Counted from the stretch's first letter, positions 4,264 through 43,203 are shown. The stretch is DNA of 64,000 bases from Candidatus Nomurabacteria bacterium (GCA_037130925.1 JBAXSC010000001.1:90896-154895); one strand, 5' to 3'. Numbers and translations are program-made. Notes: generated by a model from the sequence alone, not told the origin.

Positions 4264-5559
4264 ATGTCAAAAGAGAATAAAAAAGAGAAAAGAGTTTATT
4301 TAGATTTTGCCTCACAGACAATGATGAGTAAAAAAGTCATATCTGAAATGAAGAAAGTTCAGAATTTGAATTTTAATCCAAATAATATTTATCAAGAAGG
4401 TCTTGATGCTGAAAATATTTTAAACGAAGCTAGATTGAAAATAGCTAGAACTCTCGGTGTTCGTGAATATGAAATCTATTTTACTGGAAATGGAACTCTT
4501 TCTTGTGCTTTGGCTATTTTTGGAATACTGAATTTTTATAAAGAAAATAATTCTAAAAATAAAGAATATATTTTGCCTCATATTATCACTTCAAATATTG
4601 AGCATGTCGCTGTGCTTGAAAATATAAAATATTTAGAGAAAAAAGGAGAAATAGAAGTGAGTTATCTAGAATGTGATGAATTTGGAATTGTAAATCCAGA
4701 CGATGTTGCAAAAGAATTAAAAGAAAATACTATTTTGATTTCTGTAATGTATGTAAACAACGAAGTTGGATCTATTCAAGATATTAAAAATATTAGTAAG
4801 AAAATAAAAGAGTGGAAGAAAAATAATAATAGAGATGTATTTTCTTATCCGTATTTTTATACTGATGCAGCACAAGCAGGGAATTATCTTTCTCTTTATG
4901 TTGATATGCTCGGTGTAGATTTACTTTCTTTAAACGGATCAAAAATATATGGTCCAAAATCTTCTGGAATTTTATTTAAAAAAGAAAAAGTTCATATTTC
5001 TCCTTTTTATTTTGGTGGAGGACAAGAAAGAAATATTTTTTCTGGTACTGTCGATATAGAAAAAAGTGTCGGTCTCGCTACAGCTTTAGAAGAAGCTCAA
5101 AACAAAATTAAAAATATTAAAATTTTAGAATCTATTTCAAATAAAAGAAATAATTTATTAGAAAATATTTTAAAAGAAATAAAAGAAGCAAAATTGATAG
5201 GGTCTTGGAATGAAAATGAATGGAAGTCTGAAAAATCTGGTATTCCTAGAGATGAAAGAGAGGCAAAGAGAGCACCAGGAAATATTTCTATTCATCTTCC
5301 AGATTTTCCTTCTGATGAAATGGTAATTCGTCTTGATCAAAAAGGGTTTGCTGTCTCTGCTGGATCTGCATGTTCTGCAAAGAGTGATGAATTTTCTCAT
5401 GTGATTTTTAACATTTCAAAAAATAAATTTAAAAAAGAAGAATCAAAAAAGATAGCTCGTGAGACCATTCGTATCTCTATTGATGATAGTGTAGAAGAAA
5501 AAGATTTAGAAAGATTTGTAAAAGTCTTAAAAGAAATTTATTATAAATTCAAAAAATAA
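4264..5559 (+). CDS. cysteine desulfurase (class V aminotransferase, NifS/IscS-like)
   Basis: ORF 4195..5559 trimmed to the ATG at 4264 (MSKENKK). It has a PLP-lysine context SLNGSKIYGPKSSG and a catalytic Cys loop SAGSACSA. Confidence 0.85.
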   Translation: MSKENKKEKRVYLDFASQTMMSKKVISEMKKVQNLNFNPNNIYQEGLDAENILNEARLKIARTLGVREYEIYFTGNGTLSCALAIFGILNFYKENNSKNKEYILPHIITSNIEHVAVLENIKYLEKKGEIEVSYLECDEFGIVNPDDVAKELKENTILISVMYVNNEVGSIQDIKNISKKIKEWKKNNNRDVFSYPYFYTDAAQAGNYLSLYVDMLGVDLLSLNGSKIYGPKSSGILFKKEKVHISPFYFGGGQERNIFSGTVDIEKSVGLATALEEAQNKIKNIKILESISNKRNNLLENILKEIKEAKLIGSWNENEWKSEKSGIPRDEREAKRAPGNISIHLPDFPSDEMVIRLDQKGFAVSAGSACSAKSDEFSHVIFNISKNKFKKEESKKIARETIRISIDDSVEEKDLERFVKVLKEIYYKFKK

Positions 5560-5615: not shown

Positions 5616-5945
5616 TTATTTAGTAAGCATATGAAGTGTAAAATTATTATCGTCATTTTTTATTTCTTTTAATAATAATTTTTCTTCTTCAAATCTTTTT
5701 TTAAAAAGTTTAAAATTCACTTTTATAAACCTTTTATCTTCTTTTGTGAGTTTTTCTGAAAAAAAAGTATTGAACCAAAAATTGGAAGATTTAATTTCTT
5801 CTAACGATTCACTTTTGTTAATAAAGAACAAAATTTGTCCTTTAGCTTCTTCTTTAAGTTTTAAAAATATAGCATTAAAAGTATCATCTAACTCTATAAA
5901 TTTATCATTTAAAGCTTTTTCTAGATCCTTAGATACAGTTTTCAT
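5616..5945 (-). CDS. hypothetical protein
   Basis: 109-aa ORF. A TTGACA-type promoter lies on the minus strand upstream (plus-strand tttgtcaag at about 6025). Confidence 0.5.
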   Translation of the reverse strand: MKTVSKDLEKALNDKFIELDDTFNAIFLKLKEEAKGQILFFINKSESLEEIKSSNFWFNTFFSEKLTKEDKRFIKVNFKLFKKRFEEEKLLLKEIKNDDNNFTLHMLTK

Positions 5946-38547: not shown

Positions 38548-39333
38548 TTAATTAATTTTAGTAAAATTTATTTTTACTTGACCTGGGTCGGTCTGTATCT
38601 CACTAAAAGGATAAAGTCTGAACACTGCTTTTCCTGCTATATCTTTTTTATAAATAATACCCCAACTTCTCGAATCATAACTCTCAGCACGATTGTCTCC
38701 GAAAGCTAAATATTCATCTTCTCCGAGAGTGATATCCATATTTTTCATCACGTCTGGATATTTGATAAAGCTCTCGTCTAAGACTTCTCCATGAGGATTT
38801 TCTTTATTATAAATAGTTGTGATACCAGTCTGTACAGTGACTCTGTCTCCTGGAACACCGATAAGTCTTTTAATAAAGAATTCGCCATTATATTGATCAT
38901 TTTTAACATGTCTAAATACTATGACGTCACCACATTTTAAATTGTTTATATCGTATCCTAATCTATCTATAAGTAATAATTCTCCAGTTTGAAGAGTTGG
39001 GAGCATTGATCCGCCATCAACAAAGAAAGGCTGTATAACAAAAGCTTGAACACTTTTTATTATTACTAAAATAGTTACTATTAAAAGTAAAAGCTTTCCT
39101 GGAGATTCTTCTTTTTCTAAAACTTTCCAAGAAATTAATTTTCTTTTAACATTTTTAGAAAAGATTGCTAAAAATAGAGAGATTAAGAAAAATAAAATAA
39201 TGATAGAAAGTAATAAACTATAAGGATTACTAATAGAGTCGCTAATAAAATTATTTACAATATCACCAATATTATTTGTCATAATTATTGTCAAAATTAT
39301 AGCATAGCTAGCGACTTTTGAGCAAATTTTCAT
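38548..39333 (-). CDS. lepB: signal peptidase I
   Basis: 261-aa ORF with catalytic Ser box DGGSMLPTL, a Lys box (FIKRLIGVPGD) and GDNRAESYDSRSWG. Confidence 0.9.
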   Translation of the reverse strand: MKICSKVASYAIILTIIMTNNIGDIVNNFISDSISNPYSLLLSIIILFFLISLFLAIFSKNVKRKLISWKVLEKEESPGKLLLLIVTILVIIKSVQAFVIQPFFVDGGSMLPTLQTGELLLIDRLGYDINNLKCGDVIVFRHVKNDQYNGEFFIKRLIGVPGDRVTVQTGITTIYNKENPHGEVLDESFIKYPDVMKNMDITLGEDEYLAFGDNRAESYDSRSWGIIYKKDIAGKAVFRLYPFSEIQTDPGQVKINFTKIN

Positions 39334-39371
39334 ATAGATTTTTGTCGTGATATAATTTAATAAAATATCTT

Positions 39372-39893
39372 ATGAATTTCTTACTTTTTCCGCTTGGAAA
39401 TTTTGGTGCAAAATATGAGGAAACTAGACATAATGCTGGTAGATTTGTATTGTCAGAATTACAAAAGAAAAGTCTTTTGGATGAATTTTCTAATTTAGAG
39501 ATTTATATTCCAAAGTGCTACATGAACGAATCAGGTGAATATTTAAAGGATTATCTTAGAAATAAAAATATCGAAAAAGAAAATATTATAGTCATGTATG
39601 ATGACAAAGATCTAGAAATAGGCGAAGTGAGACTTGTCAGAGATAGGGGAGATGGTGGACATAATGGTCTCAAAAATATAATTGAAAATATAAATACAAA
39701 AGATTTTTATAGAATCAGAATTGGCATTGCTCCAATTGGTACCGGTAAAAATAATCTTGTTCCGCCACACGGAGACATTGTCAGAGAATATGTTTTACAA
39801 AAAATGAGTGATGAAGAAAAAGAAATTCTTTCTTCAAAAGAAATTTTAGAAAAAGTTTCAAATTTTATTTTTAAAATTTTAAATGAAAAATAA
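39372..39893 (+). CDS. pth: peptidyl-tRNA hydrolase
   Basis: 173-aa ORF with GNFGAKYEETRHNAGRFVL and GDGGHNGLKNI motifs. Confidence 0.9.
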   Translation: MNFLLFPLGNFGAKYEETRHNAGRFVLSELQKKSLLDEFSNLEIYIPKCYMNESGEYLKDYLRNKNIEKENIIVMYDDKDLEIGEVRLVRDRGDGGHNGLKNIIENINTKDFYRIRIGIAPIGTGKNNLVPPHGDIVREYVLQKMSDEEKEILSSKEILEKVSNFIFKILNEK

Positions 39894-39922
39894 AAAAGCC
39901 ACAAATTAATATGGCTTTTTTG
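39892..39922. repeat. left direct repeat / terminator hairpin flanking the RT module
   Basis: aaaaaagccAcaaattaatATgGcttttttg. It matches 41638..41668 at 25 of 30 positions and includes a compensatory A-T to G-C change in the stem. Confidence 0.7.
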
Positions 39923-39935
39923 TTTTAAAAATTAA

Positions 39936-41354
39936 TTAAGAACTTATTTTTTCTAAATGTTCAATGAATAAATTCATTGGTTTTAATACCTGTAAAGGTA
40001 TATCTTCATCTTTGTAAATATTTTTTATAAACGAAATATATCCTTTGGCCTGATTGATTATCTTAGCTTTTTTGTCTTCTTCTTTTGTTGCTAAATAAAA
40101 GACTGATCTAATTTTTCTTTGAGTATTTTTGGGTATGGTCGGATTTAATCCAAACCAAGGAGTAAAATGTCTTAATGCTTGTCTTGCTCCTTTTATCCTT
40201 AAATATCTAAGATGTTTTAAATCTTGTCTATTTTTTCTTTTTTTAACAAGTCTTAAGCCTGTAACCATCGGATTTTCGTATTCACATTCATACACATGGA
40301 TTTTTCCCATATTAAATTTCCAAAAAGAAGTAAGTTCTACCTGTTTTATTAATTTTAATAATCTTTTAGTGATTGTAGATTTATTATCTTTAGTATTATA
40401 AACACTAATAGTTATACTATCTACATAAACAGATATTCCGTTATAGCCAGCGTTTACAAAAGATTTTGGAATTTTATTTTCTAAAAATTCTTTTTCAAAT
40501 AGATCTAAAATGTCACCATTAGATAAAATTAAAGCCATTAATATATTTGAAGTATTATAACCTTGCGGCATTATTCCTTCACAAGTAACTATTGTTGATA
40601 ATATCTCAGCCATCTTTTTACAAATAGCATAGACGTCATCATAATGTTCTGGAGACCTGATAAGTTTTCTGAGATAAGGATAATCCTTATTAGGAAAAAG
40701 TAATATTCTTTTTCCTGTAAGGTTTCTAACTCTATAGCCGCTTATCCAGTAATAAATTTTTTTATTTCTCCATTTTTCTTTTGTGTCCATTCTCTTTTTA
40801 AAAGCTTGAACTTCTGTAAAACCTTCTATTATTACCTCTTCTTTAGACCTTTTTTCTTTACGGTTAAAAGGTAGTTTTTGAGACAATTTTTTCTGTTGTA
40901 TTTCATGAAGTATATTTTCATGGTAATAATAGTATTTTCTCCTATGTTCGTTCATTTCAGATAAAAAAATATTAAGTAATATGTCTTCTATCTGTTCTTT
41001 AGTGATACAATGAAAAGCGTCTCTTATGTCTACATCTATAATAAATTTAGGAGCCATAAGAGTGTGAGGCAGTATTCCATCCATTACGGACTTGTTTTTC
41101 ATACCGCCACAACAATGTTTAGAAATAAGGTTCAAATGAAAAATTTTTTTAAAGAAGTTTATATAAATATTTTTTACAACTTCCTTTGTTACTCTTGTGG
41201 GAGCGTGAATAGTTCTAAATCCACCACTTTTTTTAGGTTCTTTTTTAACTCTAAACGTGGGGTTACTATAAGCTTCTTCAATCAACTTATAGTCTAATTT
41301 TGTATAGTGTGCCAATATTTCTATAGCAAGACTATAAATTGATTGTTCGTCCAT
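39936..41354 (-). CDS. retron-like reverse transcriptase with YVDS catalytic motif and a large motif A-B insertion
   Basis: 472-aa ORF. Readable RT motifs are KKSGGFRTIHAP (RT1/2), GMKNKSVMDGILPH (RT3 region), FIIDVDIRDAF (motif A), MPQGYNTSNIL (motif B), ISVYVDSITIS (motif C) and NPMVTGLRL (VTG, a retron hallmark). Its layout is collinear with my memory of Ec86 RT. Confidence 0.8.
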   Translation of the reverse strand: MDEQSIYSLAIEILAHYTKLDYKLIEEAYSNPTFRVKKEPKKSGGFRTIHAPTRVTKEVVKNIYINFFKKIFHLNLISKHCCGGMKNKSVMDGILPHTLMAPKFIIDVDIRDAFHCITKEQIEDILLNIFLSEMNEHRRKYYYYHENILHEIQQKKLSQKLPFNRKEKRSKEEVIIEGFTEVQAFKKRMDTKEKWRNKKIYYWISGYRVRNLTGKRILLFPNKDYPYLRKLIRSPEHYDDVYAICKKMAEILSTIVTCEGIMPQGYNTSNILMALILSNGDILDLFEKEFLENKIPKSFVNAGYNGISVYVDSITISVYNTKDNKSTITKRLLKLIKQVELTSFWKFNMGKIHVYECEYENPMVTGLRLVKKRKNRQDLKHLRYLRIKGARQALRHFTPWFGLNPTIPKNTQRKIRSVFYLATKEEDKKAKIINQAKGYISFIKNIYKDEDIPLQVLKPMNLFIEHLEKISS

Positions 41355-41590
41355 TTTAAATAATTTTATTTGTTAATTAATTCGATTTTGAAAGAGCGAT
41401 TGGCTGGGCCCTGGATTTTTTAAATCCAGGGTTTGATTTTCATTCTATTCGGCACGAATGCCTTTGTTATGTAAGTTCGATGCCTGATAAGGCACCTCTC
41501 TCATTATGTCTTTTGGTCAGCTAGATACTAACTGACACATTAAAACCAGACTATTCAATGAAAAAACATCAATAGAGAACCCCAGTTAAT
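41355..41590 (-). ncRNA. structured non-coding leader co-transcribed with the RT (candidate RT template/msr-msd-like RNA)
   Basis: About 235 nt lie between the predicted TSS and the RT ATG, GC-richer than the flanks. Minus-strand hairpins include ccctggattt-aaa-aaatccaggg (10 bp), ggca-UUCG-tgcc, tgcc-ttatca-ggca and gtcag-(11 nt)-ctgac. There is no credible ORF. Confidence 0.5.
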
Positions 41591-41593
41591 TTA

Positions 41594-41622
41594 ATATTAT
41601 ATCTTTTTGTTAATGTTGTCAA
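41594..41622 (-). promoter_or_regulatory. sigma-70-type promoter for the ncRNA-RT transcript
   Basis: Minus strand TTGACA (41622..41617), a 17-nt spacer, then TAATAT (41599..41594). An overlapping TATAAT lies at 41601..41596. Confidence 0.55.
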
Positions 41623-41637
41623 TTTGATTTTAAAAAT

Positions 41638-41668
41638 AAAAAAGCCGCAAATTAATGCGACTTTTTCT
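41638..41668. repeat. right direct repeat / terminator hairpin flanking the RT module
   Basis: aaaaaagccGcaaattaatGCgActttttct. It is homologous to 39892..39922 and serves as the terminator of the 82-aa gene on the minus strand. Confidence 0.7.
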
Positions 41669-41691
41669 TAATTTTAAATTGTTAATAACTA

Positions 41692-41940
41692 CTAATAGTG
41701 ATCAGCAACTTTTTGTTTACCTTTTTCAGCTAAGGTGAATAATTCATTTTCCAATTCAAGAAATTGATCATTTGTTATTTCTGATATTTTATTTATATCC
41801 CAAATTGGGAATAATACATTTACATGTTCAGATATAAATTTATCTGCTCCTTTCGCTTGAAAAAGTTGGGAAGATCTAAAAAATTCTTTGGGAACTTCTT
41901 CTTTAACTTTGAATTGATCCTCTTGATGACTTCTAGGCAT
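41692..41940 (-). CDS. hypothetical protein
   Basis: 82-aa ORF, separated from the RT module by the terminator repeat. Confidence 0.45.
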   Translation of the reverse strand: MPRSHQEDQFKVKEEVPKEFFRSSQLFQAKGADKFISEHVNVLFPIWDINKISEITNDQFLELENELFTLAEKGKQKVADHY

Positions 41941-42048
41941 TGTTATAAAATTTAATAGTTAAGAATAATATTAGAAAGAACTTTAATATTAATAACAAAA
42001 AAAGCTTGATTGGTCAAGCTTTTTTTGAATATTTCAATATTTTATTGA

Positions 42049-43203
42049 TTATTTTTTAACTGTCAAAGTCATTTTCTCTTCTTTTCCTTCGAATAGGTTG
42101 ATTTCAAATTTATAAACCTTTCCTAATGAAAGCTCTTGTTTCATTTTGTCTTCGTTTTCAAAATCAGAAATGTGTACAAGTCCTGCTACACCTTCTTCAA
42201 TTGATACTAAAGCTCCGTGTTTATTGAATCTGATAACAACTCCATCTACAGAATCTCCTTTCTTGTATTTCTTACTTGCAGTAATCCAAGGATTTTCTTT
42301 TAATTTCTTCATTGATAGAGATATCTTATCATCTTTAATTTCGATAACTTCAACTTTTACTTTATCTCCAACTTTCGCATAATCTTTTGTATTTTCTACT
42401 AGACCCCAATCGATCTCACTTTTGTGAATAAGACCTTCGATCTCATCTTCAATCTTTACGAAGATACCAAAGTCTACAACTCCAGTAACAGTTCCTTCTA
42501 AGATATCGCCAATGTTGTATTTAGAAATGATCTTTGTTAAAGATTTTGTATCTTTTTTATCTTTCTTATCATCTTTTTTAGAATCTTTCTTTGAGTCTTT
42601 AGAGTCTCCAGAAGTTATTGGATCTGTTGATTCACTAAAGATAAGTTTTCCTTCTTTAGGAATAGCAGCAATAATACTTACAGGAATTCTCTTTCCAACT
42701 AATTTTCTTAATTCAGTTAAGATTTGATCTTTACTTCCATCAGTTACTTTAGGATAATTCTCTCCTTTTAATTGTGATGAAGGAAGGAAACCGTTAAGAC
42801 CATTCCAGTCCATGATAAGTCCTCCTTTATTTGCTTCTTTAACAACAAGTGAAAGAACTCTTTTTTCTTTAAGAAGACTTTCTGCTTCACTCCAGATAAG
42901 AGCATGCTTTGCTTCACGTAGAGAGAGATCGATATATCCATCTTTGTTTTCTTTTAAGATGATTTTAGCTGTGATAGTATCACCAATGTTTGTCTTTTTG
43001 ATAAGATCACGAGCGTTGATGTACTCAACACCGTAGATGATACCTGTACCAATTGGCCCAAGATCAACATAAACTGCTGTTGGACTAATAGCAGCAACGA
43101 TACCGTCGATAATGTCATCCTCTTTAATAGGGGTGATATTTCCTAACACCATTTTTACATATTCATCAACTACTACGTTAGTTGTAGGGTTTGTGTTTGT
43201 CAT
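42049..43203 (-). CDS. rpsA: 30S ribosomal protein S1 (four S1 domains, K/D-rich linker)
   Basis: ORF 42049..43227 (TTG start) trimmed to the ATG at 43203 (MTNTNPTT). It has repeated S1 OB-fold motifs (GDIITGTV-like: DIIDGIVAA, GDILEGTVTGV, GDSVDGVVIRF). Confidence 0.85.
   Translation of the reverse strand: MTNTNPTTNVVVDEYVKMVLGNITPIKEDDIIDGIVAAISPTAVYVDLGPIGTGIIYGVEYINARDLIKKTNIGDTITAKIILKENKDGYIDLSLREAKHALIWSEAESLLKEKRVLSLVVKEANKGGLIMDWNGLNGFLPSSQLKGENYPKVTDGSKDQILTELRKLVGKRIPVSIIAAIPKEGKLIFSESTDPITSGDSKDSKKDSKKDDKKDKKDTKSLTKIISKYNIGDILEGTVTGVVDFGIFVKIEDEIEGLIHKSEIDWGLVENTKDYAKVGDKVKVEVIEIKDDKISLSMKKLKENPWITASKKYKKGDSVDGVVIRFNKHGALVSIEEGVAGLVHISDFENEDKMKQELSLGKVYKFEINLFEGKEEKMTLTVKK

Follow-up and report, generated by a model that had tools for sequence, protein, structure and literature searches.

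A compact putative transcription unit encoding a reverse transcriptase (RT) lies on the minus strand of a 64,000-nucleotide (nt) stretch of a Candidatus Nomurabacteria genome (GCA_037130925.1, JBAXSC010000001.1:90896-154895), referred to here as the window and numbered from its first letter. In the direction of transcription, the locus comprises a terminator-like hairpin (41667-41638), a sigma-70-like promoter (TTGACA-17-TAATAT, 41594..41622, 10 of 12 consensus matches), a structured stretch of ~235 nt devoid of open reading frames (ORFs; 41590-41355), an ORF of 472 codons for a retron-clade RT (39936..41354), assigned by ORF call, hidden Markov model (HMM) and fold, and a bidirectional terminator (39921-39892). 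Both hairpins were located by a terminator scan, which found no terminator between the non-coding RNA (ncRNA) and the RT. An earlier reading of the same DNA, made from the sequence alone, had proposed this order, and all of its elements were recovered, as were the flanking genes that it named: pth (39372-39893, plus strand; Pfam Pept_tRNA_hydro, E = 8.5e-39), which is convergent with the RT, and an 82-aa ORF behind its own terminator (41692-41940, minus strand). Promoter, ~180-nt ncRNA, RT and terminator together form a cassette of ~1.71 kb. The unit is an orphan retron-like RT-ncRNA unit, since no neighbouring gene is conserved beside it and its genomic contexts are always housekeeping ones.

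The family to which this unit belongs is small, uncatalogued so far and confined to candidate phyla radiation (CPR) bacteria. A search of 5.8 billion proteins with the RT yielded only 15 clusters, and an exhaustive profile search gave ~8 core representatives at the 50% identity level and 66 relatives at E < 1e-30, beyond which lie ordinary retron RTs. All named carriers are Nomurabacteria or Saccharibacteria, and the window RT is identical to P0001, the hypothetical protein WCO35_00755 of Candidatus Nomurabacteria. A comparative set of 16 distinct homologous loci was assembled from CPR genomes and metagenomes. At every one of them the RT is preceded by 260-350 nt of non-coding DNA and sits amid housekeeping genes, and in none of the 16 does a conserved neighbour or candidate effector gene lie beside it, in agreement with the sequence-only reading, which had seen no co-transcribed effector. 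At least seven unrelated contexts are represented. In the window and three relatives at ~70% identity the RT stands between recA, an S1-domain gene and a small ORF on one side and pth-lepB-hisS on the other; elsewhere it is found between parB-relA and topA, between dnaG-rpoD-glycosyltransferase and tsf-rpsB, between alaS and SWIB, between DHFR and argS, and between a gene for a 610-aa protein and ybeY-ftsA-ftsZ. A more distant relative, P0017, has gltX-metK on its 3' side, its upstream region being cut off at the contig end. Neither the RT family nor the ncRNA motif pattern was found in the IMG/VR viral contigs, which thus give no sign of a phage-borne origin. One database entry of the family is mis-annotated at its 5' end: the called start of P0014 (L021, 298-1827) runs into the ncRNA and leaves an N-terminus that does not align with the family, the true start lying downstream.

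In profile searches the RT falls among retron RTs, and it passes no type-specific model of the 13 described retron types. Its 25 best PADLOC matches are all retron RT models (III-A, II-A, VI, XI, XIII and others, E ~1e-17), with no DRT (defence-associated RT) or Abi model among them; the best score, 60.8 bits, is spread evenly across types III-A, II-A and VI, and no match exceeds 61 bits. Of the NCBIfam models retron_St85_RT scores best, its 53 bits lying far short of the cut-off of 235, whilst the generic Pfam RVT_1 profile scores 28.9 bits, slightly under its cut-off of 29.6. A search of the PDB with a family profile returned retron RTs only (Ec67, Ec86, Kva2, Ec83 and Ec78), which were reached with this profile alone, phmmer with the single RT sequence giving no PDB match. 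When an AlphaFold2 model of the protein (mean predicted local distance difference test score 73) was searched with Foldseek, the 13 best matches were likewise all retron RTs (E = 7e-8 to 3e-5), with Ec78/Eco7, Eco2, Ec86 and Ec83 among the top ones. Group II RTs ranked after these (5e-5), followed by the structures of DRT9, UG15, DRT4 and AbiA (4e-3 to 6e-2) and of the RT of a diversity-generating retroelement (DGR; 3e-2). The RT-ncRNA unit matches none of the families curated in PADLOC, NCBIfam, Pfam and Rfam, and profile placement leaves the RT outside any characterised family. As judged from its sequence and predicted fold, the RT is of retron type and lies outside every catalogued type, a grouping based on HMM, PDB-profile and fold matches.

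The motifs of the protein are those expected from this placement. The sequence-only reading had described the RT as collinear with retron RTs, and the motifs that it listed, KKSGGFRTIHAP, D109, QG264-265 and VTG364-366, are all found in the window protein. Retron RTs are marked by region X, an NAxxH motif between RT2 and RT3 of which the His is most conserved, and by a VTG triplet in RT7/region Y, of which the Gly is most conserved (PMC7736814). Both marks are present. In region X, S89-x7-H97 is invariant in the family, the His (41064..41066, minus strand) ending a motif that reads DGILPH in the window and DNVxxH in most homologues; in region Y, the triplet V364-T365-G366 (40257..40265, minus strand) contains an invariant G366. 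D109, D112, Y310, D312, QG264-265 and K351 are also invariant across the family. A feature not remarked on previously is that motif C reads Y310-V-D312-S313 (40416..40427, minus strand) in place of YxDD, position 313 being S, N, G or D in the family. Of the 17 family members examined, 13 have S, N or G in place of the second Asp and four retain it (P0010, P0015, P0016 and P0017); a neighbour-joining tree of the family requires at least three independent replacements, and more distant relatives are nearly all Y[AV]DD. This pattern argues for, and does not prove, an active site that still works, with a relaxed need at position 313.

Between motifs A and B the protein carries a fingers insertion of ~110 aa (residues ~125-240; 40635..40982, minus strand), which is evident in the profile alignment, the family alignment and the model and bears out the large internal insertion described earlier. 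Motifs A and B are consequently 155 aa apart, and RT residues 28-374 align to 208 positions of a retron RT profile. The insertion consists mostly of long helices modelled with low to medium confidence, and its length varies among homologues. The protein also has a helical C-terminal part of ~100 aa. Searches of Pfam, PADLOC and NCBIfam recognised no extra or effector domain in the RT.

The region upstream of the RT is a structured RNA of exceptional conservation. The sequence-only reading had called it hairpin-rich, and the stretch 41590-41355 indeed has a minimum free energy (MFE) of -61.9 kcal/mol compared with -43.1 +/- 4.0 for shuffled sequences (z = -4.7), none of 200 shuffles being as stable. 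The ncRNA lies directly upstream of the RT, on the same strand and 25-60 nt ahead of its start, in all 16 distinct loci, and these regions align although the RTs share only ~31-40% identity. A covariance model finds exactly one copy per locus (110-182 bits), including the window (model R1, 41589-41380, 134 bits, E ~1e-29). Pairing was assessed in an alignment fitted to this model, a procedure that favours the structure; canonical pairs make up 93.8% of its cells, as against 25-45% when the partners are slid by 1-3 columns, and 30 of the 41 modelled pairs show compensatory changes on both sides; no observed measure was reached by any of 500 shuffles. The same helices were found independently in single-sequence MFE folds and in the initial MAFFT alignment, and RNAalifold, a hand-specified structure and the covariance model agree on the structure. 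Conservation and covariation among homologues are therefore strong in the region that the earlier reading had singled out.

The ncRNA core of ~182 nt (41404..41585; this and all elements below are on the minus strand) consists of a terminal helix, P1, enclosing five hairpins. P1 is formed by an a1-like 5' strand, CUGGG (41581..41585), and an a2-like 3' strand, CCCAG (41404..41408), pairing 41585-41581 with 41408-41404. It comprises 5-7 bp in all 16 sequences and covaries between them (CCGGUU/GACCGG, CUGGUU/AACCAG, CCGAUU/AAUCGG, CCUGAGU/ACUCGGG). The statement of the sequence-only reading that no convincing a1/a2 inverted repeats exist is overturned by this helix, which is of a1/a2 type if shorter than in many retrons. 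Within P1, the first hairpin, SL1 (CUAUUGAUG...CAUUGAAUAG, 41551..41575), is conserved in sequence, its 10 pairs being 98% paired and four of them showing compensatory change; it is a candidate RT-recognition (msr-like) element. SL2 (41509..41550) is bipartite, with an inner stem and triloop (GUCAGUUAG-UAU-CUAGCUGAC, 41536-41516) and a conserved apex, GUUAG-UNU-CUAGC. Its inner eight pairs are 99% paired, five with compensatory change, and its outer stem of 3-6 bp, read directly from the sequences, also covaries (UCU/AGA, UUC/GAA, UCG/CGA, UUCC/GGAA, UUAU/AUAA). SL3 (41479..41496) is a variable hairpin with a conserved UUAUC loop, which lies outside the covariance model and appears at this place in every per-sequence MFE fold. 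A conserved AAGGC(A) at 41460-41465 stands just ahead of the variable SL4 (AUUCG-UGC-CGAAU, 41447..41459), all six pairs of which, in the comparative register, have compensatory changes. The junction that follows, J4/5 (41432..41446), is unpaired in the consensus structure and holds the near-invariant AGAAUGAA, in which G146, G150, A151 and A152 are invariant and A147, A148 and T149 at least 90% conserved. Finally, SL5 (41409..41431) is a perfect 10-bp hairpin abutting a2, in an msd-like position; its 11 model pairs are 95% paired and all have compensatory changes. Across the family SL5 remains a perfect hairpin of 10-14 bp abutting a2 and varies in sequence, SL1 and SL2 being conserved in sequence.

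This arrangement corresponds to the general scheme of retron RNAs, in which inverted repeats go together with 5' hairpins that are conserved and, beside a2, a stable hairpin that varies (PMC7736814). With both an a1/a2 helix and a retron RNA layout present, the unit is therefore closer to a retron than the earlier reading had held. Two other pairings were considered and set aside. When the window sequence is folded singly by MFE, SL4 is mispaired and SL1 is fused with SL2, and this fold was replaced by the comparative structure. The J4/5 sequence GAAUGAAA is complementary to UUUCAUU in the 3' strand of SL1 (41555-41563), and the two could in principle pair as an alternative or a switch; this pairing was not adopted, as J4/5 does not follow where SL1 covaries (L001, L019 and L021).

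Promoters comparable to that of the window end 8-12 nt ahead of P1 in most homologous loci, and the transcript should therefore begin at a1, as in retrons, the predicted start being 1-5 nt ahead of P1. An A/U-rich leader (41355..41403) with a semi-conserved CUCUUUCAAAA motif at 41390-41397 separates the ncRNA from the start codon of the RT. In most homologues (L003, L014, L015, L019, L021 and L022) a2 is followed by a U-run, e.g. GACCGGUUUUUU, and then by the semi-conserved GUUCUUUAAAA; of these the window keeps only the CUCUUUCAAAA motif. The U-run could be an attenuator that frees the ncRNA from the RT mRNA.

The cassette is also delimited at the level of DNA. The two terminators of the window, which had been taken as separate elements, are copies of one 35-nt direct repeat: the left copy (41632..41666, minus strand) contains the terminator hairpin of the upstream 82-aa ORF and a T-run, and the right copy (39886..39920, minus strand) is a terminator that works in both directions and shares 8 nt with the end of pth. 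They are identical at 31 of 35 nt (blastn E = 7e-9), and an exact 18-mer of the repeat occurs at these two sites only within the window. The promoter lies between the repeats, 9 nt from the left one. Flanking direct repeats of 23-58 bp were found in six loci at three independent sites (E = 7e-9 to 2e-20), and consist of host sequence, namely the T-run of a terminator and the 3' end of the flanking gene. Two of the syntenic relatives have repeats of 58 nt and 91% identity (L012, 4668-4725/6415-6472) and of 40 nt and 95% identity (L008, 4689-4728/6460-6498), each of which combines the terminator and T-run with the last ~8 pth codons in reverse complement, so that a remnant of the end of pth is present upstream of the promoter; the third (L009) has a degenerate version. 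At a second site (L006, 1402-1458/3107-3164, 58 nt, 91%) the repeat runs from the T-run of the upstream terminator and includes the last ~10 codons of the convergent downstream gene. At a third (L019, 2821-2843/4602-4624) the last 23 nt of the upstream gene for the 610-aa protein are repeated exactly after the RT terminator. The right copy at this last site (4597-4625, TACGTCAACGAAACCGATTGGTTGAATTA) matches the end of the L001 orthologue of this gene (~5685-5713) at all of 29 nt and differs at three positions from the gene end of L019 itself, which suggests transfer by recombination through the repeat or an ancestral state that was retained.

The DNA between the repeats measures 1648-1758 bp, and its two ends lie 0-10 nt ahead of the -35 box and 17-50 nt past the stop codon of the RT. 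Because of these fixed ends, promoter, ncRNA and RT look like a discrete inserted unit with a target duplication of 23-58 bp. Ten of the 16 loci are without repeats, which have either decayed or never formed. As the promoter is inside the unit and no integrase or transposase is encoded, simple retrotransposition from the unit's own transcript does not explain the insertion. Recombination through the repeat, by excision to a circle and re-insertion at a homologous site, or a trans-acting factor may be put forward as candidate routes.

Taken together, these observations tip the judgement, by no means decisively, towards the locus being a compact autonomous retron-like cassette that probably makes a short complementary DNA (cDNA) from its own leader and that arrived by DNA-level insertion, duplicating 23-58 bp of its target. 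By analogy with retrons, the ncRNA and RT would be made from one transcript starting a few nt before a1, and the RT would bind SL1 and SL2 of its own leader. Reverse transcription would then start beside the a1/a2 helix and copy SL5 towards the conserved single-stranded block UAGAAUGAAAU, giving a short hairpin cDNA of perhaps ~40-60 nt that would remain part of an RT-RNA-cDNA particle. With no effector encoded in cis, such a particle might act with a factor encoded elsewhere, or through the RT, the RNA or the cDNA itself.

Several observations weigh against this interpretation. All retron family models score the RT far under their own cut-offs, as the 53 bits against 235 exemplify. The second catalytic Asp of motif C, which is needed for activity in retroviral RTs, is Ser in the window and Asn or Gly in most relatives, so that an intact YxDD is lacking. 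The conserved G residues of a1 (CCGG, CUGGG) are base-paired, and in L007 the last G of CCGG has become A, compensated by U in a2. In the position that follows the helix, most sequences have U or C; G is found in the window and L008 only, and L004 has A. With no unpaired G conserved where a1 ends in the 3' direction, the sequences lend no support to canonical 2'-OH priming from a branching G. SL5, at 10-14 bp, is short compared with many msd stems, and the ncRNA blocks are much better conserved than the RT protein, which is atypical for retrons.

A more far-reaching proposal combines these departures with the evidence for insertion. The family could be a minimal mobile, CPR-specific retron-like element, in which a 1.7-kb promoter-ncRNA-RT unit moves into terminators and gene 3' ends, has an effector-free RT-RNA(-cDNA) particle as its output and perhaps uses a polymerase site without the second Asp and priming other than from a branching G. 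Such a conjunction is held to be unlikely, albeit not fanciful; if true, sequence evidence of an element's own insertion events, together with an effector-free mode of action, would be available for a member of the retron clade for the first time.

Among the rival explanations, one is a single-gene system in the style of the DRTs, in which part of the ncRNA would template a long or repetitive effector cDNA, concatemeric as in DRT2 or homopolymeric as in DRT9, with the UAGAAUGAAAU block as a candidate template. The presence of RT and ncRNA as the only components in all loci, which had led the sequence-only reading to liken the unit to single-gene defence RTs, is consistent with this, as are the almost invariant unpaired block flanked by structure and an ncRNA more conserved than the protein that it precedes. 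The likeness holds for the composition of the locus and otherwise remains an analogy, as the RT sits with retron RTs and not with the UG/Abi group, both in Foldseek (7e-8 for the best retron RT against 4e-3 to 6e-2) and in the PADLOC ranking. Furthermore, the RNA is closed by an a1/a2-type helix, as in retrons, and its hairpins vary by compensatory changes, so that no coding constraint on a cDNA product is visible. On balance a DRT-style mechanism appears improbable.

Much the same low standing is given to a selfish mobile element, for which RT and ncRNA would serve the spread of the cassette and the direct repeats would be target-site duplications. Such an origin would account for the 23-58 bp repeats of host sequence at three unrelated sites, for inserts of similar size whose ends are fixed relative to the promoter and the RT stop codon, and for the different housekeeping contexts of different clades; repeat length varies in target-primed reverse transcription, which is in keeping with the range seen here. 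Against this, RNA transcribed from the unit's own start site could not regenerate a promoter that lies inside the repeats, and of their RNA retron-type RTs copy the msd part only (PMC7736814). Each locus has one copy, with no other in the window, Pfam and PADLOC detect no integrase or endonuclease domain, and the same site is kept in relatives at ~70% identity, which looks like vertical descent.

A further and somewhat more doubtful possibility is that the RT has lost its polymerase activity, or had it strongly reduced, and now serves as an RNA-binding protein in a regulatory or structural ribonucleoprotein that makes no cDNA. The replacements in motif C (YVDS, YVDN or YVDG in 13 of 17 members, arisen at least three times) could be read in this manner, as could the stable synteny among relatives at ~70% identity. 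Nevertheless, all other catalytic and deoxynucleotide-binding residues (D109, D112, Y310, D312, QG264-265 and K351) are invariant, and the YVDD members (P0010, P0015, P0016 and P0017) carry the same ncRNA where the locus is readable (L007, L015 and L022). Some active viral polymerases moreover have GDN or ADN in motif C.

That the locus is a DGR or the remnant of a group II intron, as might be supposed from the generic RVT_1 match, from the standing of these two as the most common kinds of RT in CPR genomes and from the fact that DGRs account for ~80% of CPR RTs (PMC8632793), is rejected as scarcely credible on the Rfam, repeat, Foldseek and NCBIfam results: no pair of template and variable repeats is found near the RT, the only long repeat at the locus or around it being the 35-nt direct one that flanks it; the structure of the DGR RT matches at E = 3e-2 only; no Rfam intron or other RNA family is found at E <= 1; and the group_II_RT_mat model reaches 25 bits where its cut-off is 300.

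The favoured reading of the locus as an autonomous retron-like cassette can be set against systems already described. Retrons without an effector are on record, in the Retron-Eco5 (Ec107) branch (PMC7736814) and in Retron-Bth1 (PMC12548924). In common with retrons, these orphans included, the family has region X and VTG, an upstream ncRNA on the same strand, a terminal inverted-repeat helix, a variable hairpin by a2 and no effector in cis. It differs from retrons in an RT that scores under all curated models, with its ~110-aa A-B insertion, ~100-aa helical C-terminal part and non-conserved second Asp. Its ncRNA has five hairpins instead of two to four, no evident conserved branching G, and sequence blocks conserved across RTs at ~31-40% identity. 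The family is also restricted to CPR and flanked by long direct repeats of host sequence. With DRT2/UG2 and DRT9/UG28, of class 2 of the UG/Abi RTs, it shares an organization of one RT gene and one structured upstream ncRNA with no other protein; it differs from both in an RT that is not UG/Abi by HMM or fold and in an RNA that an a1/a2-type helix closes. A UG/Abi RT group from CPR genomes, UG38 (PMC9226505), resembles it as a rare RT family of metagenomic genomes of Parcubacteria type without an added domain. UG38 belongs to class 2 of UG/Abi, whereas the window RT has retron motifs and retron best matches; the two are told apart here by description. Class C (IIC) group II introns are similar in site only: they insert beside intrinsic terminators or at gene 3' ends, and the cassette adjoins such terminators and gene ends. 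The cassette has none of the intron RNA domains, its RT is not a maturase, and group II introns, unlike the cassette, do not duplicate tens of bp of target.

The sequence-only reading had regarded the unit as an undescribed variant in a CPR-type genome. This stands insofar as no curated family in the four libraries covers it; it does not extend to the lack of an effector, which alone is not new, the Retron-Eco5 branch and Retron-Bth1 having preceded it. With respect to the libraries and literature searched, what is new is a CPR-confined family below every model threshold, an ncRNA absent from Rfam, the combination of a relaxed YxDD with a large fingers insertion, and the insertion footprints.

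Retrons are described as three-part defence systems of RT, ncRNA and effector. In the present family, nature supplies a clean example of a retron-clade RT with a strongly conserved ncRNA and no partner gene, in carriers whose genomes are very small and unlikely to retain DNA of no use. The family provides a well-supported RNA family, with five hairpins and 30 covarying pairs, for RNA family libraries, and a natural series of motif C variants (D, N, S and G) with which the need for the second Asp in retron RTs can be probed. The insertion footprints could reveal how such cassettes spread and, if active, a compact 1.7-kb RT-ncRNA unit might be useful for DNA production in vivo.

Two minor observations concern the DNA immediately upstream of the cassette. 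The 82-aa ORF has no Pfam or NCBIfam match. It lies beyond the direct repeats, with the S1-domain gene on one side and the cassette on the other, a position kept in the three syntenic relatives, where it encodes 73-88 aa. It was considered as an effector and rejected, having no family match and a terminator of its own, lying outside the repeats and not being found beside the RT in other clades. A permissive Rfam scan of 39000-43000 gave no match on the ncRNA and only weak, terminator-like ones at 41624-41715 (STnc40, STnc320 and Leu_leader), all under their gathering scores and accounted for by the terminator hairpin and T-run alone.

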